Notes: a model not told the origin generated them from the letters alone. 55,371 bases of DNA from Phoronis australis (GCA_002633005.1 NMRA01000388.1:374128-429498), one strand, 5' to 3'; shown: positions 1 to 44,983, counted from the first letter of the stretch. Program-made: numbers and translations.

Positions 1-2117
1 CAAAATTTCATTTTTTTCGAAAAATTTACGGTATTAAGCGATACCATCAGTTTAGATAGAGCTTTGAACGGGCTTTCAGAAGATGCTTTCCATTTTTCTC
101 TACGACGTCTACTTTTCGAGTTATTTGAGATTTTGTGATAACGCTGCTCCTTTGTTGAGCGCTCTTGCTGCATTCTGGTTGGTTTAGCTTCTATTGAACT
201 AGACTGCAGCCTATTTCTTAATGATTTATGTCATCTAAATTCGTCATATAAATGTTATGATGTTCTTCATCATGGCCACCACCATCATCATATTCGTCAT
301 CTTCGTCATCATCTCCGACGTCGTCTTTTCTTCAGTTAATTTCGCCACGTGTCGCTCATGACTGTAGCCTATTTCTTAGTGATTTCTGACCTCTACGTTG
401 GTTATATGATTGATATCATAAATTGCATGGTCCATCATCGCCACCATCGTCGTCATAGCTGTCATCTTCGTTTTCATCTCTGTCGTCGTCTTTTCTCGTC
501 ATCTCTAACGTGGTTTTTTTAGTTAATTTCGCCAAGTTTCGCTCCTCAGAGCGCTTTCATTTTGTTTGTTCGCACTCTACAGGTCGCAATTTTGGTCCGA
601 TTTTCACAAAATTTGCACACACCGTGTAGATCATAAAGTCCTAGAAGCCTATTGTTTTTTGTCATCATCGGATACAAAATGGCGGACGTGGCTGCCATTT
701 TGTATCCGATTTCACAGTCAAATGCTCGTAGAGGCCGCATTTTTCAACAAACATGGCTGAAAATCGGAACGAATTTACTAAATTGCATGTGCTACAATAG
801 TACGGAAAATCGTTGACTTCCGGTTAAAGATAGCGAAAATATTGGACGTGGCGCATGCGCACCCCGAAATATGGCCAAAAACGTTTTCTCCTTTAGAATG
901 CGCATTTGCAAACCAATTACTTTCAAACTGGTCACGTGTTTGTTGAGTTTAATAAGCTTTTATAAAAAATTATTGAACCGGAAGTCACTTTCAAGATGGC
1001 GGCTGTGGGGAACAATCACACGGTTTCAATCGCACTGGGGTCGCATTTTTTATGGGAAGAGCAAATGACGTGAATTTTTGCATGTGGAATCCTTGAAGTA
1101 TGGCCTTTCAAAAAGTCTGCGAGAGCGTATTTCTCAGACTTACCGTTTTCAAGTTATTTGACTTTGAATTTCAAAAAAACGGTAAATTTTCAATTTTCTC
1201 GAAAAATTTTTGGATTTTTGCCAAACTACCACTTTAGATAGAGATTTGAACGGGCTTTCAGGAGATTTTTTCCATTTTGCCCTACGACGTCTACTTTTTG
1301 AATTATTCGAGATTTTCGGATACCATTGTTCCTTCGGTCACACGCAGCTGGCTGGCTTTCAGCTCACTTTGTTTTGGTTATGCCTAGTTGACCCAGACTG
1401 ACCCAGCCGGCACTATCCTACTGTAGACTGGACTGTCATGTTGCGCCATCTATTGTTCTTTATTGTAGTTGATTGTATGCTCTCTATTTTATTTCTTCGC
1501 TAGTCACATGAATGTTATCGTGATTGCCAAGCTACCGCTTTAGATAGAGTTTTGAACGGGCTTTCAGAAGATATATTCCATTTTGCGCTATGACGTCTAC
1601 TTTTTGAATTATTCAAGATTTACGGATACCGTTGTTTCAATTCGGTCACCTACAGTATGCAAGGACCCAGCAGGCTGGCTTTCAGTTAACTTTGTTTTGG
1701 TTATGCCTAGTTGACCCAGATTGACCCAGCCAGCACTGTCCTACTGTGGCGGAATAGCTCTCTGTAGACTGTACAACTCCAGGCCAAATACTTATTGTAA
1801 ACATAACTTTGCTTTGCAGACGGTCACATAGCACTACCTATTTTAGAATGTGGGAACAGACATGGCTCGCCCGTCCTGTTGCGCCATCTATTGTTCTTTA
1901 TTGTAGTTGATTGTATGCTCTCTATTTGATTTCTTCGCTAGTCACATGAATGTTATCGTGTTTGCCAAACTACCACTTTTTGAACGGGCTTTCATTCTTT
2001 ATTGTAGTTGATTGTATGCTCTCTATTTGATTTCTTCGCTAGTCACATGAATGATATCTTGTTCGTCGTCTTTTCGATTAATTCCGCCAAGTGCTGCTCC
2101 TTCGAGCGCTCTCGTTT
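1..2117. repeat. Complex interspersed repeat with internal degenerate direct repeats (non-autonomous DNA/Helentron-like element, truncated by window start)
   Basis: A ~100-bp block (tttagatagag..tgaacgggctttcag..gacgtctactttt) recurs at ~50, ~1232 and ~1538, and partially at ~1975. The block ttctttattgtagttgattgtatgctctc occurs at ~1455, ~1894 and ~1995. 205-360 resembles 360-545. Similar ends (gccaag..gctcc..gagcgct..gtt) lie at ~530-565 and ~2086-2117. Confidence 0.65.
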
Positions 2118-3743
2118 AAGTAAGTGAACTCATACAGTCGCAAAACACTAAATCGATGTCAATGTTTTTTTAAAGAAATTCCTAAAATAACGGCGTCTAA
2201 GGTTCGACGTTGCGTTACACCGATTGTAATTTACGAGGTGAGCTATTTGTTTCTGCTTTTTGTCGACTGGTAGTAGTTTCGTTGTGTATTACGACAGTTT
2301 TCATGTTGTTAATTCAAGATGCGTATTGCCTTAAGCATGCCATTCATTGCTTTGTACGTCCCGTACAGTGCTAATTTGACTAGGAAATCGTTTTAATACA
2401 CATTACTACATTGACGAAGAGGGTTTATTTAAGTTAGTCACTCCGGGTTTTGGCAAGACAACGGTGACAGCTTAACGTTAACGGCAATTGCAACCGTTTG
2501 TCATTTGACCCCTCGCGTTAGTGGCAAAAAACGTGTTTCTCACAGAGGTTCTTCGTTTTCTTGATTTAATCTCCTGGAACCCCCGCTTAGATGCGTCACT
2601 GTAGTGTTTTTACCCTCACACAGTTACTGTCAGGGAGAATGAACCTTATCTATACCAGATAAGGAAGTTGAAGGTTGGCTAGACCTCGTTGAGTAACTGT
2701 AGGTAGACAGATTAGCCAATGGTTTGATGCAGCAGTGAACCGCAGACGACGGTGTGCACGTATGTCATAGTTATCAGAGTTTATGGCATTCAATTGGTTT
2801 GTTATCTTCGTCGCAGGGGTATTGCGAATGCTTGTTGCTGGCCACAAGAAATTAGGTCATTCGCTCTTAATGTGCCTACAGAGAATTCCTTCCGAGGTCT
2901 GCCTACCCAATGCCACATTTTTATAGAAACGCTTCTTGATCCTCTTCTTGGCCGCACATTTTATCTAGTATCATGTAACGACGGTCTTCTCTCTAAAAGC
3001 TCTTACTCCTAGACAATTTCACCCGATGGAAAGTGTTTGGATCAACTGCTGGTGCCGACATCTACTGTCCGCTGCAGTTAACTTTTCCTGTGGATTCCAC
3101 TTGTTTTTAACGAAAATATCATTATTCAAATCCACTGACGTCTTCAAAAATACCTCATGAACGCTTACAGGTCCAACATGATGAAACTTGGAGGCATGCC
3201 AAGCCGTTTCCCAGCGAGCGGCTGACAGATATATACCTCCCATTCTCTTTGTTGTTGTAACAATAAGAACATACATACATATATAGTACAAGAAAAAATA
3301 TCCGCTTTCCCGTCACGACGGCTCATTTTGTTAACAGCAAAAATGACTGGTAATAACTGTTATGGCGGTAAAGTAATAGTGACATTATGGCTTTTCCACC
3401 TCACTAATCTTCCTGTTTAGTAGGTTCATTTCGTTGTTGCATTAGTGTCCGAAATTTGTTATGCATTAGACGAGCACATGAAACACGTTTCGCAATTTAT
3501 GCAGCAATTTATGCAGCAATTTATTGTCGTGGCTGCTGTAGCTTGTACAGCATTGGCACGACATATTTCCAGTCGCAGTTCGTTTGAGGTCAATTATATT
3601 CGTGAACCAAACACTTGCCAAATCCCACGGCACACTTGTGTGAATCAAAATAGTAGTTGTCAAAATCCCGTCTCGGGGAACACACGTCCTTTAAAGCGTG
3701 AAATTCGTTTTTCAGGCAGACGCATACAACTATCTTATCTAAG

Positions 3744-5771
3744 ATGGCGCAGACGACTTTGGATAAAATAGACGGCATTTGTAGTGCCTGGTTTAGGTTG
3801 AATTGTGACAAAAGAATCCTACAAAATATCATGTTTCGTTTCGAATCAGAACACCAACACGAGCCAGATAGTCGGCGACTCGCGGTTATGAACATAGTTG
3901 GCTACATTTATCACGAACTCAACGTGAAGGGAATTCTGGGCTCCGCGTCACAGTGCTTCGAGCGAGTATTAAGTGAAGACCCAGACAACCTCAACGCTCT
4001 TAAGAGTCTCGTTCACATTCACCGCACGGCGTCACCTGAAAAGGAGTTCAAGTATCAGAGGCATTTGGACCGCTTATGGCAGTGCGATCGGGTTTTGCAA
4101 GAGCAACTCATTGCCAGATGCATGTTCGAGCATGCAGTGTATATGAGTGTGCGTGAGGAGTCATTTCTACGCGACAATCATCAGCAGATTATCAAAACCT
4201 TCGAGAAATGCATCAGGATTGGGAAAGAAAGTAAAGTTACGAAATGCGAATTAGAGTTATGGAGGTATGAGTTGGGAATTCTTTACGTTCGTTTAGATTC
4301 TCTTTCAACTAAAGAACCAAAACTGACACAAGTTACCGAGAGACAATGGCTGGTAAAAAGCTTGGAGACGCTTTATGAAGTAGCAACAAGTGGTTCTTGC
4401 GAAAGACAAAGAGCTGACTGTAGCCTGCACAATGAATTTTTGGATTGTAAAGGCAAGTCATGGAGCTATTTGGGTGTTGCACTAATGCGTCGACTCGAGA
4501 CCCAAGGTTTTGCTATCAAAGACGTAGCGCAAAGCATAGGAGGCGAATTCTGCACACTCAATGGAATACAATGTTTTGAGAAAGCTTTAAGTATTTCGCC
4601 AAACCAACCCTCTGTTCTGAGACGGGTTGGACAGGCTTATATGCGAACAGGTGAGATGGATAAAGCAAAAGAATATCTTTGGAAGTCCGTTAAAATTCAG
4701 CCCACTGGTTACGCCTACAGTCTTCTTGGACAATGGTACTTTAAAAATTACCAAATGAAAGAAAGTAAAGATGATCTGGATTCGTCAATCAAGTATCTTA
4801 ATCTTGCAAGAAAGGGCTCCTGTGACATGTATACAATGTTTAAATGTCTCATACAAGCATACAAGGCCAGCGGTAACTTAGAGAAGGCCAAAAAGTATTG
4901 CGAAACGTGCGCAGGAACATTCGAAGGATCCCGAGAGGCCGATCTGTTCAGGTTATGGGCTAAGCTACTTCGTGAAACTAAAAACATAGCGATTGCTGAG
5001 CAAAAAGAGCAACGGGCTAAGAAGATAAGTGATGGACAGAATCCGGAAGAAATCAAAGATTTTGGAGTTCACTACGCCAAGAGTGACGAGGAACGTGTAG
5101 AGAGATTTGTGAAACAAGTAGAAGGAACCATGGAGGTGTCGGGCTACTATTTAGGTAGAGATCTTACACCTGGTAATTACTTTATTGATGGTCTGATAGG
5201 GTTAGAGAAAAAATGCAAGTACGTGTTCGTATTTTGCACAGAAAACTACGATTCGCGTTTTGAAAACGAATTGAATAAAATAATGCATCGGAGATTGGAA
5301 AGAGAGCATGGGTCTGTAATACCGCTGGTTTTTGGCAATGCCAGAGTACCGGAGTGTATAGCGGATGTTAAAGGAATTAATTACGATGAAAGTCAGCAGT
5401 GTTTTGATGAACTGGAAGAGGTGTTTCACGGGAAGAAGAGCCTAAGGAGGCGAATTGTGCATATAATGAGGGGCACGAATCATCCCATGACATTTGTGCG
5501 TTGTGTGACTCTCGCAATGGCCTTTCTTGTTGGTCGCGTAACAACATGGATATCGGAATACGTTACCAGCGGAAAGGAATGGTCAAGACATGTTTTGTTT
5601 GGACTAATATCAGTCACTTTTCTGACAGGAATGTTGATTATGGGGCTGGTGGACAAATTCAGACCTTATGGCATGCACAGAACTGTCGTACAGTACGTCA
5701 TACTTGTAATAATTGCCTATTTCGCCGGACTAAATGGACATTTCTTGAATAGTCATTATGGAAGGAATTAG
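3744..5771 (+). CDS. Intronless TPR (TTC22/IFIT-like) - TIR - 3xTM protein, 675 aa
   Basis: Uninterrupted 2028-nt ORF with aagATGG start context and AATAAA just after the stop (~5776). TPR-like helices include ASQCFERVLSEDPDNLNALKSLVHIH and IQCFEKALSISPNQPSVLRRVGQAYMRTGEMDKAKEYLWKSVKIQP. The TIR region at ~5058-5430 has box1 DFGVHYAKSDEERV, BB-loop GRDLTPG and VFVFCTENYDSRFENEL...VIPLVF. Three hydrophobic segments lie at ~5493-5555, ~5589-5651 and ~5682-5738. Candidate 5'UTR splicing uses donor GAG|gtgagc at ~2238 and acceptors at ~3420 or 3715. Confidence 0.88.
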   Translation: MAQTTLDKIDGICSAWFRLNCDKRILQNIMFRFESEHQHEPDSRRLAVMNIVGYIYHELNVKGILGSASQCFERVLSEDPDNLNALKSLVHIHRTASPEKEFKYQRHLDRLWQCDRVLQEQLIARCMFEHAVYMSVREESFLRDNHQQIIKTFEKCIRIGKESKVTKCELELWRYELGILYVRLDSLSTKEPKLTQVTERQWLVKSLETLYEVATSGSCERQRADCSLHNEFLDCKGKSWSYLGVALMRRLETQGFAIKDVAQSIGGEFCTLNGIQCFEKALSISPNQPSVLRRVGQAYMRTGEMDKAKEYLWKSVKIQPTGYAYSLLGQWYFKNYQMKESKDDLDSSIKYLNLARKGSCDMYTMFKCLIQAYKASGNLEKAKKYCETCAGTFEGSREADLFRLWAKLLRETKNIAIAEQKEQRAKKISDGQNPEEIKDFGVHYAKSDEERVERFVKQVEGTMEVSGYYLGRDLTPGNYFIDGLIGLEKKCKYVFVFCTENYDSRFENELNKIMHRRLEREHGSVIPLVFGNARVPECIADVKGINYDESQQCFDELEEVFHGKKSLRRRIVHIMRGTNHPMTFVRCVTLAMAFLVGRVTTWISEYVTSGKEWSRHVLFGLISVTFLTGMLIMGLVDKFRPYGMHRTVVQYVILVIIAYFAGLNGHFLNSHYGRN

Positions 5772-6879
5772 AACAAATAAACAACTAAACGGCATGTTAG
5801 GGATGACTCCAGTCAGGTCACTGTAACGTTTTAAACTAAGTTGATATTGTTGGTTTGGATCAGTTATGAAAGAGTTGACTAGACTTTCATCGACTTGGCT
5901 CTCATGCGAAACTAATTAAATTATTGTCTCACCCTGGCTCAAGATTTGTTCGCGTAACCGATTGGGTCTCAGTTAAATTCATAGCTCTTATGAAATTCTT
6001 AGTTATTGCTTTTCAGCTAAATTGTATAAGTATGAGAAATCAAATCATGAAAAACGGACTCCTAAATCGGGTATTTTTATACATCATTTTGTTGAATATT
6101 TTTCAAATCGGGCTACTCTTTAGCCAATCCGTTAGCGTTTTGCTTAGTTCCTTGATATGCGCCACTTCAAATCAATTACTCTCTTATACGATCATTGGGA
6201 TTGGGGGAAAGATTTCATTCTTCAACCTTCACGAGCTGTGAAAAACATGACGGAAAGATAGAAATCGTCAAAGGAAAGTTAAAACATCTCGACCGTGAGA
6301 AATTCTATAGACATTGAGCACGTTCAATGTCTTACAGACATTCACTGACCTGTCTTCTGCATGAAAAAATGAAAAGTGATATGATTCTTTTGCTCCAAAC
6401 TAATCATTCATTATTCTGGTTTGACAATAAACTGAAGTAAAATCTTGACAAAAACAATTACGTAATAATTGCGACGTGAGCTATGAAATCGAAAGTACGT
6501 CCGCCACGATGTTTCTGAAAATAAGCACTTGAACGCCATTAACTTGTAAATCGTCATTAATCAAAGGCTCTGGTAAAGTTGCCTCCGGTCGCCACGCTGT
6601 TGCTGTTCAAATTTTTTCTACATCACGGCACTCAAAATTGATTTTGTCCCACTTAACTCGTAAGTCGAGACTTGTAAGTCAGGTGTTCGTTGGCGCAAGG
6701 TCGGTAATTGTTGACGTATTTTCAAGGAAGTCAAAAATGAGAGTCTCACCTTTTTAGATACTATGCACGCTATTGTTAATGTTTTTTAATACATATATTG
6801 ATTGCCCAGACAATAACACAAAGCCAGTCTGAGGTTGGGCGCCTCAGATCTAGCTTTAACAACAGTATATAATATTATN

Positions 6880-8909: not shown

Positions 8910-10281
8910 AGGAGAATGTCACCAAAAACAACGTACTTTGTAACAATTTAGATAGAGTAGGTCCATGATAACAGCAAGTTCAGTTCCTTTACCTGACACC
9001 AGATGGTAGACGGAGAGGCTGAAGTTAATCAATGACGTCACAGGTTCTAACACAGTCTGGTCAGCAGTTCACGAGACACTCACTGGTGTCGGCTTATCGC
9101 CTGAATTCATCATTTTACACCAATAAATCATCAAAGTTCGATGTTTGTGAAACAAATGGGTCGTTTTATTCTGCTACTACGGATTTATGGAAATTTTGAA
9201 CGTACCGTACCTTACAGAGTTCGCGGGGGTAGGTCAATTTACCCAGGTCGGTGGCAAAAGTTTGCAGTATGTTCGGTGATAATTTAGAATTATTCTTCCG
9301 TGAAATACAGACACGGAGGAGAGCATAACCGTGTTCTGTAATTTGAAATTTGCAAATTTCATCTGTTCAAAACACAAAACGCTCGTTTTAACACAATGGC
9401 CCGGAACACGATCAGGCCGGTCGCGGCCGGACTGGAGACATTACGAACATAAACCAGCCGGGTTAGTCGGCTGTGAAAGTTGAATGTGCACGTAAATACT
9501 TTGGTGAATTCGCCGCGAAATTTCAAATCCACTTACTCGACGGGGCCGCAAAGCCAAATTTCCCTTCCACAGAACCGTACAGAGAAACAATTTACAATAA
9601 CAATGATTTGAATAATGTTTGTTGTGTATATGTATATGTTTATTTATAAATAAAGACACCTCAAACATCTGACCATAGCACATAAAATCGAATTATTGTT
9701 TCACAGCAGCTTTCGGTCAGCAAACACTGAATTAGCATGGGCTCATACGGCGGTCACTTAGTTTTTAATGTATCTGAAGCCGATAAACGCAGTAAGTTTT
9801 ATTCATTGTTGATTTCTCAAAACATTTGCACTCATGAACACGCCTAAGGCATTACAAATTGTATCCACTGAGACAGACTTTGACACTTTTTTCTATTTAT
9901 ATAAACACTGGTTAGGGTGAAAAATTTCATTTTGAAACAGAACCGCTTTGTCTGCCACATACACGGAGATATTTCACGGCTCATACTTGATATTACGGAG
10001 AACTTTTCGTTCTTAACTGCCGGGAACCATTTCCTAAGCATTTCGGGTTTTCGATGAAATCGAAAAACTATATACGCGCTGTCCTGGCAGCTCCATGGTT
10101 CGCACAAGCGGGAACGATACGCATCGCCATAGCGGCACACATTCACAGACATCGCTGTGTCGTGTACTCATTGTTAACGCGACACTTTTCGGTGAGGTGA
10201 GATCGACTGTATACGAGCTGATGTGGATATGGACCGATTAAGACGGTAACAAAAAGTACTTAAATCGGGTGGCATTCTCCC
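8910..10281 (-). mobile_element. Kolobok-like non-autonomous DNA transposon (TTAA target, 14-bp TIR, THAP relic)
   Basis: TTAA|AGGAGAATGTCACC (8906-8923) and GGTGGCATTCTCCC|TTAA (10268-10285) are near-perfect inverted termini. The minus strand at ~9945-10130 encodes frameshifted THAP-like pieces: MAMRIVPACANH.., VFRFHRKPEMLRKWFPAVKNEKF and LRVCGR. Confidence 0.7.
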
Positions 10282-11445
10282 TTAACTGACGCATTTCTCA
10301 ACAGAAGCATGCGCATTAATGTGAAACAGGCACCTTACGAAAATTTGAACTGACTTACTTTTTAAAAATCGTTATTTTGGGACTTATTAAAAGAGTCAAG
10401 TTACTTGTAACTTAGGTAAACGTCTACCTTTATTAATTTTTTTAAAGTGCAACTATTAAGTGAAGTGATAACTTTGGTTTTCTTTACTATCTTTTACAAT
10501 TCTGACGCATTTTCATATGCCAAATTTGCGAGTTATTCAACACGACTTCAGCTACAGTATATGACAAATCTTGACCGTAGATTTTCGGTATTCGATATTT
10601 TTATCAATTTACAATACTTAGTTTTGGTACATAAGAAAAACACAACGAAAACTTAAAACTTAGTACAAGTATAAGCAGTAAATTTATATGTGTATTTGCA
10701 TTGCAATTATTTGTTTGTTACAATAAATGCTTCAAAAATAGTTTTCTTTAGCATTGTTTGAAAACAATGCACTCTTATTTTCATAATCTATGGCAGAAGG
10801 AAAAACTTGTCTAATATTGTCACTTAGCCTCAAACATCAGCTATCCGTGCTAAATATCAGGACATTTAGAGTGCTGGTATTTTGAGGCCAAATAAAATCC
10901 TTTCTACAAATCATTGAATAATACTGACCAAGAATGTCCCAGATATTTTGTCTGCCGTTAGCACTTGCGAGGTCAGTATAACTGAGGTAATTCCGACACT
11001 ATTTACATGCAAGTAGTTTACTGGTAATTCGACTTCACGATTGTATTATTGTGTTTATAATTTTATTTGTTATTATGTTTTGATACATCAATTGAAATTT
11101 GTTGTAATGTCATAGGGGCGTCAACGCAAACAGCTGCTCGCCTACCTGAGTTTCATCAAGAGCGTTTAATGCAGTTCATCCGCAAAATATGTTTCCCTGA
11201 AAATCATCTTCTTCAGCAACTTCCACTGCCTTTAATAAACACGCATATTTTGTTTCATATGCGGAGGATTTTTTTCTTAAACATTCTCTCTGTCGACCAA
11301 ACCCTCTGGTCGATATTAACGAAGTCAAAGATTTTCTAAACAAAACATTGCTGCGGGGCCGGCCCTGTTCTGTAAATTAGTTGATGATCAGGTTAGCGTA
11401 AAAACACACACATTTCCGATTTGACGTCTGCAAACAAATACAACG

Positions 11446-13814
11446 CAGTGGCGGATCTACGGGGGGTTCAGGGGGTTTAACCCCCCCCTCGGGCCAGGAC
11501 CCAAAAATTAAAAACAAAACAAAAGCGTCTCCAGCAAAACAAAAACGGCACCTCCAGCGTGTGTAAACCCCAAGTAAACCAACTTGGAAAAAATTGAGAG
11601 GGGGGGTTCACTTTGAAAATATAGTTGTTTTGCATTGTGAATTGCTGAGTCTTTGAGGCTCATCGGCAAAACGCGCGGGGATTTATTGTGCGTGCGCTTC
11701 CGTCGACACTTCTGAAGTAGCCAAGCATTTTAGATGGATTCACCGCTGAAAGAGCAGTTCTATAGCTTCTTTACTCTAAGATATGTTTTGATTTGATTAG
11801 GGGAAATACTGGGGTGCCGCAACCCTGATATTCAAGCGAATTGACGTGCAACGTTTTTACCTCATCTGCCATGCCGTGTCATTCTATTACACTCCACACG
11901 TTTGTAACTGATGTACAGTAAAGTTGTCTTGCGCAATATCATACAGTGTAGATGTACATGTACATGTAATATTTTTGAAAAAAATTCTTTTTCCGAAGAA
12001 TTGCTATTGTGGCGGGCGCCGTCGTCTGGTCGCGAGTCCGTTTGAAGACACACTCTATAACAAGTTATGTCTATACAAGGAATGACCAAGGGGGCACCCA
12101 CATTAAGAAAGTGACCGCATTCGCGAAAAGTGTACAGTACCAGAATATGCGGGGAGGCTGTTCTTTCACAACAAAGTCTTAAGGGACTCGTGCAATTTTC
12201 AATAGGCCTCCTAAGGAGCCCTAGTTCCGACCTCAACACCTATCGTCTGTCTACCTGCAATAAGCACACTGCCGTCTTCTATACTGGGAATTTCCGCAGA
12301 AAGACTCACCCGATGAAACGCTCATGCCCATGGGCATTTATTTGATATTAGTACTTCGGGTTTCAAGCGTTCAGACACTGGGACGTTTATTTCGAAAATC
12401 GCAAGAGATGCAAATAGGTCCTGGGATGCTTCGTCAAGGTTTGAAGTAGTCCATGATGAACTGATCAAATTTAGTTGCGCATGTAAGTCTTTCGAATGGA
12501 CTTGGCAACCTCAAGGGTCTTAGTGTCAACTGAGCTGCGAAACGAGATGCTGACATTTTAGAGGCTTACAAGCTCACTGACACAGCAGTTGACGAAATGC
12601 AAGCGTTGGGAACAAACATCGAAGATATCTGGGTAGAATGGTTCCAAGACGAGCAAATCATTGGATCCGATATACACTGTACAAATTCCTCGGCAGTCTA
12701 GACAACAGAAGGATAGGACTAACGTATAAGTAACCACTAGGGATTAAAATTTTAGAGAGAAGTTTTCAATTCAAAATTTTTTGCATAGTACACTTTAGGT
12801 CTCGCGACGGACCAGGCCAGCTTGATTTGTGTAGATGTTGAGTTTCAGTGTACTTCTGGTCCCTCGGCTAACTAGTCTTGTGATTTTTTTACCAAAGTGT
12901 GCTTTGTAAAACTATTTATCTCAGCCAGTACTGTTTGATCCCGCGACAGATCGACAATTTTGTATAGGGATAATAAGCACAGGTGTACTCTTGGTGTCGT
13001 GACGGACCAGGTCAGCTTTATGTGTACTCTCAGTGTACATCTGGTCCCTCTGCAAACTAGTCCAGTGTATCTTTTCACCACTGTGAACAGGATGTTTCGG
13101 TTTCGTGAAACTGTTTTCAGATGATTTGTTTCCTGATAGATTTGACGTTTTTCAATTGTTGTCAACGTAATTCAGCTTAATAAAGTGATGCCTAATTATT
13201 TATTGTCGCTTTTGATAATAGACTATGAGTTGAGAGCACCATCGTTCGCCAGTTTTTCTCGTAACGGGACAGAACACATGACATTTCCGGACTAACAGTA
13301 CAGGTCTTCGTTCTTAAACAACTTGAGGCTGCTGTTATGCGATCATCTGATATTCAAGTTTTCACGCCCCGTCGGTGCTCCTTAATTATGCTCTTGAATA
13401 TTTGGAAATTGTCTTAACCCATGCATACACACCACACTTTTTCGTATACGACTTTTCGTATGCTAAAAAAAGGTGTTTGTGAGCAGATGTTCCAACAGAA
13501 AGTTTTGCTGGTGGCGTGACTCATACCCAGATGTGCACAATATGGTTTCACGAAACTTATGTGCCAAGTTCATGTGACGAAATCCAGAAGGGTTTTAATT
13601 ATCTTAAGAAAAACTCCAGAGACAAGTTAAGTGCCAGAAACTTACCAGGATGCATGGAAATTTCACTATTTGGCTACAAAAACAAAAAGATATCTTACAC
13701 GGGAGGGGAAACCCCCCTCCCGACCTCCCCCGCTCGGCGCCACGCGCCTAGGATTCGACCTTGCATGGCGGGAATCCTAAATCCCCCCTTGCTGAAAACG
13801 TAGATCCGCCACTG
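11446..13814 (+). mobile_element. Decayed hAT-superfamily DNA transposon with transposase relic
   Basis: 16-bp perfect TIR CAGTGGCGGATCTACG (11446) / CGTAGATCCGCCACTG (to 13814). At ~12415-12730, frameshifted peptides SWDASSRFE, LVAHVSLSNGLGNLKGLSV, KRDADILEAYKLTDTAVDEMQALGTNIEDIWVEWFQD and VQIPRQSRQQKDRTNV resemble PRKRIR/THAP12-type hAT transposase. An internal direct repeat lies at ~12806 and ~13001. No 8-bp TSD is visible. Confidence 0.75.
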
Positions 13815-16800
13815 TAGAACATTTGGCATCTATACTAATAATAGGAAATAGAGCACTCTCTGCATAGATTGACATTGTGCTATGACAGATCTTTAATAGT
13901 TGGCGAATTAACAATTTTTCTACCACTGAATGTGTTCGTCCAGTCACGCGTCAAAACACATTACACTGATCACAGTGTTGTCACCGAAAAACGTACAAAA
14001 GAAAAATAGAAATACCGGTACCTATGACGGAAATAACCGTATTCTTTTCAAAATGTCAAACATGATGTTACTTTGTCAAAGATAATGGGCACTATCAAAA
14101 TATCTCATTTCGAAAAGGTAAAAAGTTGACATTTCAAATTTGTATGTGACGCAGTGTTGTAATTTGAAGAGCTACTATTGTGTTCTTCAAGATAGCGGTC
14201 TAATATCACGCATTTAAAAAGTGCCGACGAAGTACAAATCAATCGATGAGCAAACTTTTTTGAAAAATGATTGCTGGGAGAGACATTTTTTAGTAAATAT
14301 CGGTGCTGGAATGGAGAATGTTATTGGGAGGCTATGCAATCCAACACCGTTCACAGTTGTTCCAATCTGAATACACATTTTGCATTATCACGTTTTAATT
14401 ATTCATTAACGTTCTCTGGACCGAGAGATTGGGTTTTACATTAGGGAACACTCAACTGAATTTTAATAACTCATAAAAAGACTTCATAATCAAGAAATCT
14501 TTGTATTAAGCAGCGCTCGAGTTTGATTCCTTTCCATAGAACAAAATGGTTATATTCACAACACCAACAAATAATGCTTTATTGGTAACAAACAGGCAAG
14601 CTTGAAATCAATATGTTTACCAAGCCCCATAGCAAGTTTCGTTATTTTGGCACATTTTCATTAAAAGTCAAGCATTTGATATTACGTGCCGAATTGAGTC
14701 AATAAGAAAGCAAATTGTGACAACGAGGCTATTTCAGGGAAATGTGTCTTGTGCATAAAGCAAAATTGTAAATTCCGCGAAAAAGCAGTGTACTGTTTTG
14801 GCACAAGTTTTCGTTTAGACCAAAATATTGCATAATATCAGTAAATACTTTCAGTAAACTGAATATTGCGTTTATATTGTAAGGAGGCAAGAGCAAAGTT
14901 CCGCAGACTCGAGAATCTCTCGAAAACGCAAGATCATGTAAGATTTTACGAACCATTGCCATGCATTGTAAGCAAAGTACCTGAGAACCCTTCTTTACAC
15001 CCGGGAATCTTGCATCTGCGGAACGCAGCCCTGAGCTGCGCACTGCCTATCAAGTTTCTTGCGAGAAAAGTGATATCGTGCAAAGTCTTTTGCGAGATAT
15101 CGCAACCATGCCTTAGAAGCGAGTGTCTTGCGTCCACGCCGGAACGGGCCCAGGTTGGTACATTTAAATTAATTTACACCTTTTTACGATTTCCGGAATT
15201 ACCGATTGTAAAACCTCAGTAGTCTTTCGGAACTTATTAAGGTCACCGTATTATCAGAATATTTTATTCAGTTGCTTTTCCCGATTGTGTTATTGTTAAT
15301 TTACTAAACGATATCCGGGCTCACGAGTCATCTGCATGTGCGCAATAAACTGTGGTGATGGTGTGTTTAAATCTTGGAAAGAAAGGAAAGGTGCTTTAGC
15401 CGCAGTTAATATCTTTTGAAATCCCCGGCCAGTTTGGTGAAATTATAAATGTTCAGTAATTTCAAACGCACCTGTTTTGCAGTGTTTAAGTGCAACTATG
15501 TGCACTAAATACCAGTATGTACCAGCTATGTTCTAGCAAGAACTTCTCCTGATTTTGTAGAAGTCTCAGCTAAAAGTACCATCGTTTTGTAGGCGTGTAC
15601 TCAACTACACCGTAGTGAACGCGTTGACAGTCAACAATGCAAGCCTGTTTAACTTTACCATCCAATCAAACAAATTAACCAATTTGTCCTCGTTGCAAAT
15701 AAGATTTGTGAATTGTCCTTTGGTTGTTGACCGTATCCTTTTACATAACCCTAGTTTTCATACTAACAAGTATCAACTGTTTCTCGCTCAATTTTGCGTG
15801 TTCATGTTGCAGGCATCGACCGCGGAGTAAACTTAAAATTACAAAACCAACCAATCAGTGATTACAAATTGTCTGGAGTTCATCAACATGTCGGCGTAAC
15901 ACACATTTATACCTTGTTATCTTCATGAAAATAACCCAAAACGCAAGAAAAATTGTGGAGGTGTAGTAAGTGTAAAAGCAAAACTTTCTTTTCTCAAATG
16001 GAACCTGTCTTTTTAACAATCCTAAATTACTATGTAATCCATCTCAAACGGAAATTTTTGAAATAAATCCTAAATGACGAACAATTTGTTCTTAGTAGCA
16101 AAAATGTGTTTTTGCAATAGCAGTTCAAAGTAACCCGTGTGTTCTGACCCACGGTCATCTCAGTTGACCAAAATTCAACCACATTGCACTGGTCATGCGA
16201 TTAACAATGTATTAGAGTTTACCTACCTTCGCATCTGACCGATGATACAGCAACCCATAAGACTGTGAAAGCAACCCTCCAGTAACCCGCTCTGACTTTG
16301 AATTTAGAGTCAGACATGACTGAGAGTCAACTACACGGAATCGTCCCTGAGCGAGGAAATGACCAAGTCATTTGGGTTCGTGTCAATGACTGCACAAGCG
16401 CTGTTGATTAAATGACCTTACGATTATTGTATTCAATAGCTCTTTCAAAGAACTCGCTTTTATTTGTAGACATTGTGTTGTGAAAAAAATGTCCTATTAT
16501 TTTATCGTAATGTTGCCAAAGATTTTTTAAAGCGTGACGCTTTTTTGTTAAATGTGTCCAATGACAGCCAATTACAACAGCAAAATTGACATTCCGGCGG
16601 TTGCAACCTGAACCATTTGTTAGGGCGCTATAGAAAGCACATACTTAGCACCTGGAAGACTGATGAGTCTTGTCGCACCGCTGTATTTTGTCGCCGTCGC
16701 TTAACCCAAGGATGTCCACTGGCAAGCAGAATATATTAAGGAAATTATACCTTGAACCAAGTCATTCTCAATGAAATCATAGACTATAGTAAATGGACCG

Positions 16801-23375: not shown

Positions 23376-23570
23376 ATGGCTGAGGCTTCATCAGCTGCAA
23401 GCACGTCTGAAAACTTCAAGGCAAAGAACCAGAGTGTGTTCATTTTGGGCGCAACAGGGCTGACTGGAAAAGAGTTAGTGAAAGAGGTTTTGGAGAGAGG
23501 TGTATTCAATAAAGTGGTCTTGATTGGAAGGAGGGAGGTCAAATACGATGACCCTTTGTATGAAGGGGTG
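23376..23570 (+). CDS. HTATIP2: HTATIP2/TIP30 oxidoreductase, coding exon 1
   Basis: Contains the Rossmann motif VFILGATGLTGKELVKEVLERGVFNKVVLIGRR and ends GTG|gtgagt (65 codons, phase 0). Confidence 0.95.
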
Positions 23571-24278
23571 GTGAGTGGAAAGAGTACCTCAAACTTGACA
23601 TTGATTGCAGATACTAGTACTGTACTGAGTTAACCCAAGAGTAAAGGGCAATGTTCGAATACAAAGTGCCTTCATTTTGAGAACCAGTTTTCTCCACTGA
23701 ATAACGGGCATCAAACTGGTTCTCAAAATATGGGCATGCTATATTGGCAGATAAAGTACATGTCATGCGATTTTTGGTAAATGTGTCACTACAATTGCCA
23801 TGTTCACCGGGCAAATCCATTGGTCAGGGGCTACTTTCAGACATGGTGTTTCATTAGGTGCTACATCTCAGTTATCGACTGCCAACTATAAATGAATATT
23901 GAACAAAGATGGATTTCAGTGATAACCGCTGCCTGTTCATGACAATATTCTTTAATATTCTTCCCCACCCCCCGGACATTTTAGACATTGCAGACTATAA
24001 AACTGAATTGGTCATTAAAAAGTTTAACTTTTTCATTGTTTGAACAGCAAAATTGACTAACTACAACCAACAAAGGGAAAGAGAAATAATGAGCATTGTA
24101 GATTTATAATAAGTTGTTAGACTCGTAGCCTTGCAGGTGTTGTCTACGAAGACTGGTAGAGGGTGATGGAACATCTTGCGGGAACTTGTCTCGTCATCAA
24201 TCCCTGTGGAAAGAAAATTATTTGACAGGTGTTTCCACAAGTTGTGATTTGTAATGTTTTCACAATCTCTAACTTTAA

Positions 24279-24428
<150 letters not shown>

Positions 24429-24665
24429 TGACAACTTATTGCCAATCATTGTTTGAGGTGCTATATTTAAATTCCCGTGTTCTGTTATGCTTGGCTGAAT
24501 ACCGAACCAATCCTTTTCAGTTTCTCAGTTTTAACACCTTGGGTGTTCCTAGCAACAGATGGTGTATATACTGAAGTTCAACTAATGTGATCAGGTTGTG
24601 ACTCGATAACAATGATCCATAACTGCAACTGGTGTAATAGGGAATGCTGTACCCTTGTGTTGTAG

Positions 24666-26447
<1,782 letters not shown>

Positions 26448-34189: not shown

Positions 34190-35083
34190 CTGGGGAACAC
34201 AGAAAGAAAGCAATTGAGACAATGGTGACCAGAGGTTCACTTCATAAGCCAACACTGCCACGTCTCATCGTACTTGGATCTCGTCAAGTTATCTCCTGTA
34301 CCTCCAGATGCACGATTCTCGGAAGAAAAAAGTACATCATATAACTTGAGACATCAAAAGCAATGTCAATCAGCCATTTCTACATTTGATAACTCGGCTA
34401 TATTTCATTTGTTTTTCTTACTTGTTTATAGCCTATTTTTGAGCAGAGTTCCATGACATGTTGTTCGGCAGTTCTAGGCCAGTTGACTCACGGTTGTAAA
34501 GTTTTGATTACAAAGCAAAATCCTACTAGAATGGTTACCGAAATGTAAGTGAAAATATTATTGGTTGAAACGAGAGGAAACCACACAAAACACAGAACGG
34601 ACATTTATGCATTAAGCAAAAAACAATGGACATATCTACCAATAAATTTGGCAGATATTCACAGATAAGATATTCTAATACCTCGTTTAAAAATGCAGTT
34701 TAACCATGCTACAGTAAACCTTCCAGAATGCTTGTTGTAACCATCCCTACTTAGCGACAGTCACCACTGTTATGACCTTATTTGTTTAACAACAAGTTTC
34801 AAATGCTAGTCTTGCAGTTTGAATCATGCACCTCCTAGACCACAGATGATTGTTTTTCTTGGCCTAACAACCAGATGCCCGAGTCAACGTGCAAAAAAAT
34901 GTATGGATCTTTGCAATGCACACAAAAATTGCCCAAGATCTTCCACAAGGCCCCCAGTTCTCGTTACTAGTAAAACAAGCCTTAATCTTGGGTAACTGCG
35001 TGACTCTGGATTAAAATTATTCCTCGTTCAATTGAATGACACATTGTTGCATTTTCGAAACCCACTTCAGTGACAAAACTTAC

Positions 35084-35236
35084 AGCAACGTTGCGAACAA
35101 GAAATTTCTTGAACCCATCTGGGCAGACATGTCTGTGTTTCTTTGCAGTACCATAACCTATATTGGGCATGAGGTACTGGCCCTTGAACCGCCGGCGCAC
35201 TCTGTTGTCAATACCCTTAGGCTTCCTCCAGTTGGA
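35084..35236 (-). CDS. RPL32: RPL32 middle coding exon
   Basis: tgtttcag|[39 protein letters not shown]|gtaagt, 153 nt. Confidence 0.97.
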
Positions 35237-36185
35237 CTGAAACAAACACAGTGGAAGTGAGCTTTTCTGAAGTTTATTTACACTGAAATCATCATTGGTG
35301 ACCTGCAAGTCACCAATGCAACTTCAGATTGTGTTTGGCGACCTGGGAAAAATTCCAAGTCACCACAAAGTCACCACTGCGAGTACAGAAATAATTTCCT
35401 CTAAATTTGTTTCAAACTTCGTGTTCACTTCCAAACTTTAAATTATTAACAGTTTTCCTAGATTTATTACGGTAACCTTTGACTCACAACCGCTCCGCTA
35501 TTTCGTGAAATAAGCAAATTTGCCACCACACTTAAATTACAACACGAAGTAAAGAAACAGGAGTCGGAATTGTTAGGCAAAATCGGGCAAAATCAGCTGT
35601 GTCCGTCTGCATTTAATGTTCGTTCGTTGGAGGCAGGAATTGAGTAAGAGAACGAACCTACATTTAGGCATTTATGGGGTGAAATTGGAGCGCAAGAGAC
35701 TGGGTGGCATCACGGCAGTTTGTCAAGACTACTTTGGCAACCTGTAATATTTGCATAAGCGTCGAGCGCTGCACACATTTTAAAAAAAGTTTACACATTT
35801 TTAATCAAAGGCCTTCCTCTCCTTAAAAACATCTACAAAGTAACAACGATGGGCTTGACTATCTCCAATTTTAGTACTCTCTCCTCATTTTGAAATTGAT
35901 GCTTTCAATATCACTTTTCTGGTGTGTTTTGTTTCCAAGGAATTAGACAATGTTCCAAGTCAATGGGCATTTCGGCACTGTTTAGCCATCACTGAGAATA
36001 TTTAACTCAAGTACCTCAAGGTTTCAAAACATTTTTGCCTGGCAACAATAGACACAGCACAGGCAATGCACACATGTGCCACTTTCGAATTTGGAATTTT
36101 AGGGGTGGCCAACCCCAATAAACCCTGAAGCATTTGATGACAGATTCGGCGTTCTGTTGGTAACAAAAACAGAGTCACAGCATTA

Positions 36186-43008: not shown

Positions 43009-43933
43009 ATTGTTGCTTCAAAAACATTACAACTCTATCGGATTAGTATTCCCGTAAAATCAATAAAGTTTTTCTTCGTTGCGTTTCACTTGCCACTGTT
43101 TTCAGTTCGGATCACAATCACTAGGAAGTGAAAGCTGCACAATTCATTGTTGCTAAACAGGGAAATAAAATACTCTCAGTAACACATAACTCATCTGTGC
43201 GTGACTGTGCCACAATATTGACCCGGCGCGGCCTCTCACTTAACCGTTTTAAGTCTGTGATCTCTGTCCTCAGGGAGAGAGTGGATCATTTCTGGGTTAT
43301 GAGTTTTTTTTTAACGCACCGTAATACAGTAGTTGCCCAGTCACCTTGCAACTGGGTGAAACCAATGAACTATACCAGGAGACTGGTATAGCAATGGTAA
43401 AACGAAACTCAATGAGGAGTTTACTTATTAGGAAAGCTCCATACAAGTGCGTTCCTTCCTGTGTCCACTCTCCAGTACAGGTGCAGAAGTGCCCTACCCT
43501 CGGGAGTTTGCAGCAAATTGATTGTCATGTAGTTACTTAGCCTACACTAAAAAGAGCCCTTTTGTCAGAAAACTAATCAAACGCATTGGAAAATCTTGAA
43601 AAACAACTTTGTGAACACAAAAACAGATGCCAACCACAGTATAGGAATATCCCTCAGAATATCGTGTCGAAGTGTTGCTGCGTACCCAACGATCCATATT
43701 ACTTTCAGGTTAGCACATGTACTATTGAAATGCGCCCCCCCCCTCACTTCAGGCGGTGATACGAGTATACCGATGTAATTACTGTTTGAAAGGCCTTTGA
43801 AAACAGTAAGCGAGAAGTAACATGCGACACAATGACACCGTTTCTCTTTTCTTTTCCAGGTAACTGGTTTCTAAAGGAACTGTGAGTCATAATATTTGTA
43901 TTTACCTTGGGAGAATATTACGGAACAAAAGAA

Positions 43934-44983
43934 ATGCCGGCTAGTAACCCTGCAAACATAACTACAATGGGTGAAAGTGACGTTCATTCAGTACACAGCC
44001 TACTTGATCAAGTATCGCTAGACGGCAGTCAAACTATCGTCTCGAACAAAGGCTTTTGTTGCCGTGACTACGGCAATACCGCGGCATCGACAAGAAATAA
44101 TCAAATCCCATCTGTTAATGGAATACAAAGAGGGTCACGTGATCGCGCAACACGTTTTGCTCGATTCACGCCACACAGCCCGGCAGATGTGAGAGATGCG
44201 AAGTACGAAGGCTCCGGCATGGACACAGAAACGGACGGGGATAGCCTTCTGGGCGACATGAGAGACTTCGAATCACCAGCTACGTACCCGTTGGTGAGGA
44301 TTAAGAGGAAATATTTACGTCGTCGATACGTCAACCCAATGGCTGACAACATCGCAAAGGCCCGTGAAAAGGGGCGGTCCTACTCGGCAGCGGACGTTGA
44401 GGAAAGAGCGTGCATTAAACATTTGCAGCGGGAGAGTTCCATTTCTAGTCAAATAGCAGAGAAATATCACGAAAGAGCAAGGACATTTGTAAAACAAGCT
44501 TCGGACTTGACTTCTGCAAAGGTTGATGAACAAGAAGATACACAAATTGTGGTGCGTTGTCACCCCAGAATTCCTAGAAAGCTAAAACCATTGTTTCACC
44601 ATCCGTCTTCCGAGGATATTTTGCCTCCCGCTCTGGGCAAACGGTCGGAAAACGTAGAAAATAAAGTGCCGTCGTCAAATGGAGATTACAATTACAGACG
44701 CACTTATAATTGGGAGACCTCGAATAAATCCGATATATCCTCGAACGGTTCCACCAACGGCAAACAAAAACGCGTACATTTCAATAAAGGAGCATTGCGT
44801 CGACCCGAGAGACCTTTACCACAGGGCAAAGAATCGCATACCGACCACAGAGACTGTAAAGTGCCAAACTCTTACGCAGTGGAGCTAGAGGCACGAAAAG
44901 CATTGGCCCGGAAACGTTTATTGATGTTGAAACCTATGTTTGCGACGGTACCGGAAAGCACAGACTTCAATACAAAACAGTAA
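43934..44983 (+). CDS. Uncharacterised single-exon protein (~349 aa), probably largely disordered
   Basis: 1050-nt ORF, GC-richer than its flanks, with a strong acceptor (tttctcttttcttttccag, 43859) upstream of the first ATG. S/R/K/D-rich with no recognisable domain. Confidence 0.75.
   Translation: MPASNPANITTMGESDVHSVHSLLDQVSLDGSQTIVSNKGFCCRDYGNTAASTRNNQIPSVNGIQRGSRDRATRFARFTPHSPADVRDAKYEGSGMDTETDGDSLLGDMRDFESPATYPLVRIKRKYLRRRYVNPMADNIAKAREKGRSYSAADVEERACIKHLQRESSISSQIAEKYHERARTFVKQASDLTSAKVDEQEDTQIVVRCHPRIPRKLKPLFHHPSSEDILPPALGKRSENVENKVPSSNGDYNYRRTYNWETSNKSDISSNGSTNGKQKRVHFNKGALRRPERPLPQGKESHTDHRDCKVPNSYAVELEARKALARKRLLMLKPMFATVPESTDFNTKQ

Follow-up and report, generated by a model that had tools for sequence, protein, structure and literature searches.

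A 55,371-nt stretch of the Phoronis australis genome (GCA_002633005.1, NMRA01000388.1:374128-429498; hereafter the window, from whose first letter positions are counted) carries at 3744-5771, on the plus strand, an intact open reading frame (ORF) of 675 amino acids without internal stops. Its product joins three parts: an N-terminal tetratricopeptide-repeat (TPR) region with a predicted IFIT fold, a TIR (Toll/interleukin-1 receptor) domain of the signalling type, and a hydrophobic C-terminal tail. The IFIT-fold and TIR core belongs to a conserved, uncharacterised invertebrate family, and the membrane tail has so far been found only in the Phoronis copy. The arrangement is real and lies beyond what chance would produce, and from it we infer a mechanism.

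Domain content of the predicted protein

The first ~435 residues had been described in a first-pass annotation as IFIT-like TPR helices, and this description held. Pfam recognizes TPRs at aa 275-357. An AlphaFold2 model based on an alignment of 23 sequences is all-helical over aa 2-429, with a mean predicted local distance difference test score (pLDDT) of 77.4 and a predicted template-modelling score (pTM) of 0.61. When the model was compared with known structures by VIA (962 chains aligned), the first 12 of the best 50 rows were all IFIT1, IFIT2, or IFIT5, and the best non-IFIT match was Pins/LGN with a Z of 19.8. For IFIT1 (5w5h), model residues 12-432 lay on residues 18-412 with a Z of 24.8 and a root-mean-square deviation (rmsd) of 4.3 over 364 aligned positions. 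Foldseek TM-scores, by query, were 0.39-0.43 for IFITs versus at most 0.27 for the other matches listed. Moreover, a profile of the protein's relatives (see below) matched IFIT1 aa 7-132 with an E value of 3.5e-15, and an eight-sequence profile restricted to the N-terminal region had IFIT1 as its best natural protein (E 1.4e-9), ranked below designed consensus TPRs. The Phoronis sequence alone gave no IFIT match in the N-terminal region, and TTC22, with which the region had also been likened, was absent in sequence and structure from the returns of the homologue, profile, and structure searches.

The TIR fold of ~125 residues proposed for the next segment was likewise recovered. As an isolated domain, it just passed both Pfam cut-offs (TIR_2, 28.5 bits against 28, E 2.4e-6; TIR, 21.6 bits against 21.3); within the whole protein, TIR_2 (aa 444-550, 25.3 bits) and TIR (17.1 bits) both fell under them. 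Strands and helices alternate in the model over aa 438-562. A wide structure search matched the domain to the TIR of TRIF (Z 16.9, rmsd 2.4, 129 aligned), followed by IL-18Rβ (Z 15.4), Hydra TRR-2 (15.3), MyD88 (15.0), and oyster TIR-STING (14.7); together with TRAM and IL-1RAcPb these are the seven TIR rows among its best 50 (Z 14.5-16.9), and all seven are metazoan TIRs of the signalling type. No NADase TIR occurred among those 50 rows, which does not amount to an exclusion. The motif RDLTPG aligns with the TLR2 BB loop at an E value of 0.12, weak on its own, and it fits the Box 2 pattern RDxxPG. The passages covered of PMC7075850 describe this pattern as typical of TLR, IL-1R, TIRAP, and MyD88, all non-enzymatic groups, and SARM1 as being without it. 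The domain resembles a scaffold for signalling more than an NADase, and the term "sensor-effector" used on the first pass therefore overstates the protein: the effector half is not supported.

The last 112 residues form the tail, in which non-overlapping 19-residue Kyte-Doolittle windows starting at aa 582, 617, and 647 mark three hydrophobic peaks. Two sets of 5000 random stop-free frames yielded three such peaks by chance 19 and 18 times (0.004), and a stop-free run of 112 codons arose in 9 of 20,000 shuffles and in 207 of 101,466 windows taken elsewhere in the stretch (~0.0005-0.002). Chance read-through is thus an unlikely source of the tail. Insertion sums on the biological scale (position terms left out) were favourable for helix 2 (-1.31), and the three transmembrane helices originally proposed are better described as a hydrophobic tail with one strong candidate and two marginal ones. 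Helix 1 may lie along the membrane surface, and the basic segment before it (aa 563-582) is, from its composition, likely cytosolic and membrane-adjacent. Lysine and arginine counts in the successive helix flanks (6, 2, 3, 1) favour three passes with a cytosolic N-terminus. Nothing resembling a signal peptide or a hydrophobic N-terminus was found in the protein, and the TPR region and TIR should therefore face the cytosol, however many passes the tail makes; with the basic segment ahead of helix 1, this upholds the earlier placement of both to one side of the membrane. Searches of Pfam and NCBIfam with the tail gave no significant family, only weak generic profile matches (DUF7475, E 0.019). 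A transposon origin of the tail was ruled out because DNA depth there is ~10, as opposed to thousands in nearby repeats.

Relatives in echinoderms and hemichordates

A word-index homologue search returned two generic TPR matches from 7995 candidates for the full protein and six from 8000 for the family alignment. Full-library phmmer gave 2405 matches at E<=0.001, 150 of which were listed, and two of these 150 had long N-terminal matches and were also the only ones of the 150 to match the TIR. One, P0073, is a TPR-TIR protein of Ptychodera flava; the other, P0009, is a TPR-TIR-TIR-Death protein of Antedon mediterranea (XP_071945916.1), the Death match being weak (E 0.016). In the latter, the same IFIT-like sensor module carries a different, adaptor-style output, and this layout suggests a shuffling of C-terminal modules within the family. 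When the Ptychodera TPR part was used as the query, the search retrieved 23 proteins of 565-1024 aa, all carrying TIR_2, and each of the 18 that are named to species is from a hemichordate or an echinoderm.

The family so defined (P0073 and P0154-P0174; members include Ptychodera XP_070566814.1 and Antedon XP_071945916.1) is soluble, well conserved, and distributed over acorn worms and, among echinoderms, crinoids, sea cucumbers, sea urchins, sea stars, and brittle stars. As many as four paralogues occur in one species, as in Patiria. Its members are mostly named "uncharacterized", one is named "Toll-like receptor 4", and 13 basic residues are conserved in their TPR region.

A hidden Markov model (HMM) made from 22 relatives, with the Phoronis protein left out, scored that protein at 132.7 bits, with 103 bits from a single stretch at aa 36-357 and 27.5 bits from the TIR at aa 429-556. 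Generic TPR proteins match or exceed this total only through summed repeats, their best single stretch being at most 33 bits among the matches listed, and the 27 shuffled sequences reported out of 50 reached at most 7.5 bits. Run over six frames of the window, the HMM matched the ORF at 3744-5771 and nothing else. Identity to the family is 18-25%, compared with 30-88% within it (231 pairs). Judged by these alignments, the homology is colinear across TPR region and TIR, and the Phoronis protein is a very divergent relative. The family has a ~60-residue linker between TPR and TIR that is missing from the Phoronis protein, which for its part has a tail carried by none of the 23.

The first-pass annotation had not recognized the architecture as a named family and had asked for the same domain order in other proteomes. 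Both points divide along the same line, as the TPR-TIR core is not unique, being shared by the 23 invertebrate proteins, and the tail has been seen only here. A tail-bearing relative may be hidden among the 2255 further phmmer matches beyond the 150 listed. Finally, an Atlas query with the Ptychodera protein led to one TPR-TIR cluster from echinoderms (0.98) and to two TPR clusters that are mainly mollusc (0.97 and 0.96), and the TPR module therefore probably extends beyond deuterostomes.

Transcription, gene structure, and surroundings

Three RNA runs, of each of which ~18-19% was read, were mapped onto 3400-6400. Fourteen reads (4, 4, and 6 per run; seven pairs) were at least 99% alike with an end-to-end fit, and all lay inside 3905-5419. 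The seven pairs were oriented alike, with the first mate on the minus strand, which is sense provided that the libraries were made in the usual stranded way, and depth was zero in eight of ten single-copy bins outside the ORF. The transcript level is very low; the ORF is a weakly transcribed animal gene.

DNA contigs and one RNA run together showed 13 substitutions in the ORF (eight non-synonymous, five synonymous); the alleles in these contigs, from run X1, and in that RNA run had no indels, stops, or frameshifts. Ten of the 13 cluster at aa 371-437 (4854-5052; last TPRs and TPR-TIR junction), five of them non-synonymous. This cluster could be a divergent haplotype block, and contig breaks may bias which variants are visible. 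In addition, one run X1 contig has a joint that skips 456 nt from near the ORF end (5753-6210), with 41 letters on its short side, and may reflect another haplotype or a repeat artefact.

The ORF had also been called intact and single-exon. It is intact, and the single exon applies to the coding region only, as an upstream exon is hinted at without read support. Specifically, the frame is open from an acceptor-like site (Table 1) to the ATG, and that site suggests, on its sequence, an exon further upstream. No spliced read joining to it was found among the reads mapped, and no start-codon exon of the form ATG-NN-donor was matched in 1-3716. The candidate donor upstream would yield an untranslated first exon, with an in-frame stop immediately 5' of the donor.

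Table 1. Features of the TPR-TIR gene and its flanks (window coordinates)
Feature	Position	Strand	Basis
Candidate splice donor, the sole consensus-like one upstream in the window	2238..2243	+	Sequence; without RNA support
Candidate splice acceptor-like pyrimidine tract and AG	3708..3715	+	Phase 2 with ORF; 28 nt 5' of ATG
Whole ORF: IFIT-fold TPR region, TIR, hydrophobic tail	3744..5771	+	Translation, RNA reads, DNA contigs
IFIT-like TPR superhelix, aa ~7-434	3762..5045	+	Structural match to IFIT1 5w5h; family HMM stretch aa 36-357
TIR domain, TLR/adaptor type, aa 436-565	5049..5438	+	Pfam TIR_2 28.5 bits; structural matches
BB-loop Box 2 motif RDLTPG, aa 472-477	5157..5174	+	Pattern RDxxPG
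αC glutamate E509, position of NADase catalytic Glu, not diagnostic	5268..5270	+	Alignment
Basic amphipathic segment, aa 563-582, six K/R and no D/E	5430..5489	+	Composition; low pLDDT
Hydrophobic helix 1, aa 582-600, marginal, two Arg inside	5487..5543	+	Kyte-Doolittle 1.49, hydrophobic moment 0.94
Hydrophobic helix 2, aa 617-636, clear transmembrane candidate	5592..5651	+	Kyte-Doolittle 2.23, no charged residues
Hydrophobic helix 3, aa 647-665, probable transmembrane helix	5682..5738	+	Kyte-Doolittle 1.75, no K/R/D/E in aa 648-666
AATAAA polyadenylation-signal match directly after stop codon	5776..5781	+	Sequence; use not shown by reads

Neighbouring genes in the window are intron-split animal genes. 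They include exons of a TIP30/HTATIP2-like gene at 23376-24805 (plus strand; first exon 23376-23570, E 5.2e-16 to PDB 2bka) and an exon for ribosomal protein L32 (RPL32) at 34982-35308 (minus strand; Pfam E 7.1e-22). An endonuclease/reverse-transcriptase-like fragment at ~24900-25350 (E 0.0057) lies 3' of the TIP30/HTATIP2-like exons and adjoins a run of 764 N at 25350-26113. A low-complexity ORF of 358 aa at 43907-44983 (plus strand), without a credible Pfam match, probably represents a large exon encoding disordered protein. High-copy repeats, with DNA contig depth in the thousands, occupy 1-2136, where direct repeats are nested, as well as 9079-10680 and 11215-13884, and these repeats also gather RNA reads from other copies. 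A recent bacterial origin of the TPR-TIR gene was rejected because its relatives are animal proteins, its TIR is of the TLR type, and its neighbours are intron-split animal genes.

Proposed mechanism, alternatives, and known systems

Since an IFIT-like region, a TIR, and a hydrophobic tail are combined in one chain, a membrane-tethered role in innate immunity, as receptor or adaptor, is likely for the protein. The reading that we favour, and to which we would give an even chance, is a membrane-tethered cytosolic immune receptor that bears an IFIT-like superhelix and signals via adaptor proteins. One intact, transcribed ORF encodes all three parts. The tail is predicted to insert with the N-terminus cytosolic, most likely through three helices and through at least one. 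The TPR groove would then bind a ligand in the cytosol, be it a protein or, as in IFITs, foreign RNA, at a site that presumably differs from that of the soluble relatives, and binding would cluster TIRs on the membrane surface. From there, following established TIR biology, the BB loops could seed MyD88- or TICAM-type TIR assemblies and lead to NF-kB/IRF-type signalling, the protein acting in sensing and signalling rather than as an enzyme effector. In favour of such a signalling TIR stand the intact Pro-Gly of Box 2, the retention of 11 of 17 TIR columns conserved in the family, and the Death-bearing Antedon relative. A more specific form, an "inverted Toll-like receptor" in which an IFIT-fold RNA sensor, a TIR, and an organelle-membrane anchor make up one chain, is conceivable but rather improbable.

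Several observations weigh against the receptor reading. The structural model rests on an alignment with 22 distant relatives, and a single-sequence model is poor (pLDDT 45.1). Identity of the TPR region to IFITs is 16-18%, and among the best 50 rows of the wide structure search, LGN/Pins (Z 19.8) outranked IFIT2 (Z 17.5), with IFIT1 and IFIT5 not among them. The Phoronis protein retains 36 of 96 family-conserved TPR columns and four of the 13 conserved basic residues, and it sits on a very long end branch (5.89), although its placement is unsure (midpoint root, no outgroup); because of these features, the ligand groove may be degenerate. With so few conserved residues kept, the ligand site would have been remodelled or have decayed. 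RNA binding by the TPR region, and with it nucleic-acid sensing, is accordingly a doubtful hypothesis. Insertion sums of helices 1 and 3 (4.37 and 3.53) are no better than those of helices buried in the soluble proteins of two relatives (3.0 and 3.43). The tail lies beyond the end of all 23 relatives, whose hydrophobic windows are not comparable (maxima 0.73-1.69), and no RNA reads fall on the tail, the last covered bin being 5319-5419. Finally, simple ISRE-like (interferon-stimulated response element) or kB-like patterns had zero matches in the upstream 1-3744, which was scanned without a known transcription start.

Part of this evidence would also suit a membrane-tethered adaptor or negative regulator, whose TPR groove has given up foreign-ligand sensing and scaffolds host proteins and whose TIR binds TLRs or adaptors at a membrane to sort or dampen signalling, and we consider this a possible though less probable account. 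It would fit the loss of most conserved TPR columns beside a TIR that keeps 11 of 17, a BB-loop proline shared with only three of 22 relatives, and the low transcript level, and sensor-less TIR proteins with a C-terminal transmembrane segment do exist (Trichoplax TIR-DD-TM; passages covered of PMC6321704). However, the superhelix is retained at full IFIT length with a net charge of +10, and fast divergence would likewise be expected of a receptor that switches ligands. The long branch and the lack of reads on the tail can also be taken to mean that the tail arose by recent read-through or is removed by splicing, leaving an ordinary soluble TPR-TIR product, or that the gene is a lineage-specific copy in fast decay. 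This view is favoured by the lack of the tail in all relatives and in RNA reads, its weak and generic profile matches, and the eight non-synonymous changes among 13. Yet the stop-free, triply hydrophobic tail goes well beyond chance, an AATAAA directly follows the stop codon, no strong splice donor lies 3' of the TIR (one weak match, at 5419), and the alleles seen are free of frameshifts and stops; we therefore regard this explanation as unlikely.

Slightly less likely still is a one-component sensor-effector of the SARM1 or bacterial style, in which ligand-driven TIR oligomers would cleave NAD+ and thereby cause cell death or a membrane signal. E509 is present at the position of the catalytic glutamate, the family profile does match the enzymatic TIRs AbTIR (4.7e-8) and RUN1 (3.7e-8) weakly, and bacterial TPR-TIR clusters appear as sub-0.9 Atlas look-alikes of the Ptychodera protein. 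TIRs of TLR, TRR-2, TIRAP, and MyD88 score far better with the same profile (1e-12 to 1e-20), however, and the glutamate occurs in that column in only 12 of 22 relatives and is missing in the other 10. According to the passages covered of PMC7075850, moreover, an αC glutamate is found in >70% of all TIRs, including TLR1/2/6/10, and does not track with activity; the Box 2 pattern, as noted above, is typical of non-enzymatic groups.

Vertebrate IFITs are among the closest known systems. In the model, the superhelix aligns with IFIT1 and IFIT5 (PDB 5w5h, 5udi, 4hot, 3zgq) from the N-terminus over 355-369 residues, with Z of 21-25. The coding sequence, as far as its sequence shows, occupies essentially a single exon, and a candidate acceptor-like site in phase 2 precedes it; the passages covered of PMC3688568 give IFIT genes two exons, the first with the ATG plus 2 nt, and a phase-2 intron. 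IFITs are soluble TPR-only proteins with a basic RNA-binding channel and conserved 5'-end contacts, and they have neither a TIR nor a hydrophobic tail. Their genes have an ISRE promoter and respond to interferon or dsRNA; the simple ISRE-like pattern had no match in 1-3744. Because of its extra domains, the protein is not an IFIT. The same passages restrict IFITs to jawed vertebrates, where they are said to have arisen with interferon, and dismiss invertebrate BLAST matches as unrelated TPR proteins (PMC3688568). In the family described here, a conserved invertebrate one, a predicted IFIT fold is joined to a TIR of the signalling type.

With TLR/IL-1R and the adaptors MyD88, TIRAP, TRIF, and TRAM, the protein shares the TIR fold and Box 2, and membrane attachment is predicted. 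Relative to TLR/IL-1R, the domains run in the opposite order, with the membrane segment at the end and both the TIR and the putative sensor to one side of it. By prediction, the protein works like an inverted TLR or like a sensor fused to a membrane adaptor. There is also no Pfam match to an LRR or Ig domain in the protein. Since its topology differs, it is not a TLR. With the NADase TIRs of SARM1, plant TNLs, and bacteria it has the αC glutamate in common, a residue that is necessary without being diagnostic, and its BB loop follows the Box 2 pattern that SARM1 lacks.

Among invertebrate TIR proteins (oyster TIR-TPR, the ecTIR-DC families, Trichoplax TIR-DD-TM), TPR plus TIR and TIR plus a C-terminal transmembrane segment are each listed separately. 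"TIR-TPR" proteins are named in the passages covered of an oyster survey (PMC4346834) and stand among the abbreviations of an Aplysia survey (PMC9334734), and TIR-DD-TM has the TIR before a C-terminal transmembrane segment and no sensor domain (passages covered of PMC6321704). Neither a link of such proteins to the IFIT fold nor a combination of TPR, TIR, and multi-helix tail occurs in the passages covered, and those of PMC2858798, PMC5549309, and PMC12373286 have no TPR-TIR content. No published account of a TIR protein with an IFIT fold, tailed or tailless, was found in a search whose coverage excluded most subscription journals, and the layout conferred by the tail, with sensor and TIR cytosolic and the anchor last, was not found in print.

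A functional analogy exists with RIG-I/MAVS and STING, in which cytosolic sensing is tied to signalling assembled on an organelle membrane. The relation to these systems that was examined is the TIR match to oyster TIR-STING in the wide search. If the inverted-receptor reading is true, such a protein would combine the tasks of RIG-I and MAVS using unrelated parts, and it would show that invertebrates lacking interferon used the IFIT fold in a receptor that signals. The detection of viral RNA by such animals becomes directly testable, and the conserved soluble relatives, from acorn worm, sea star, and sea urchin, may offer the better way into experiments.

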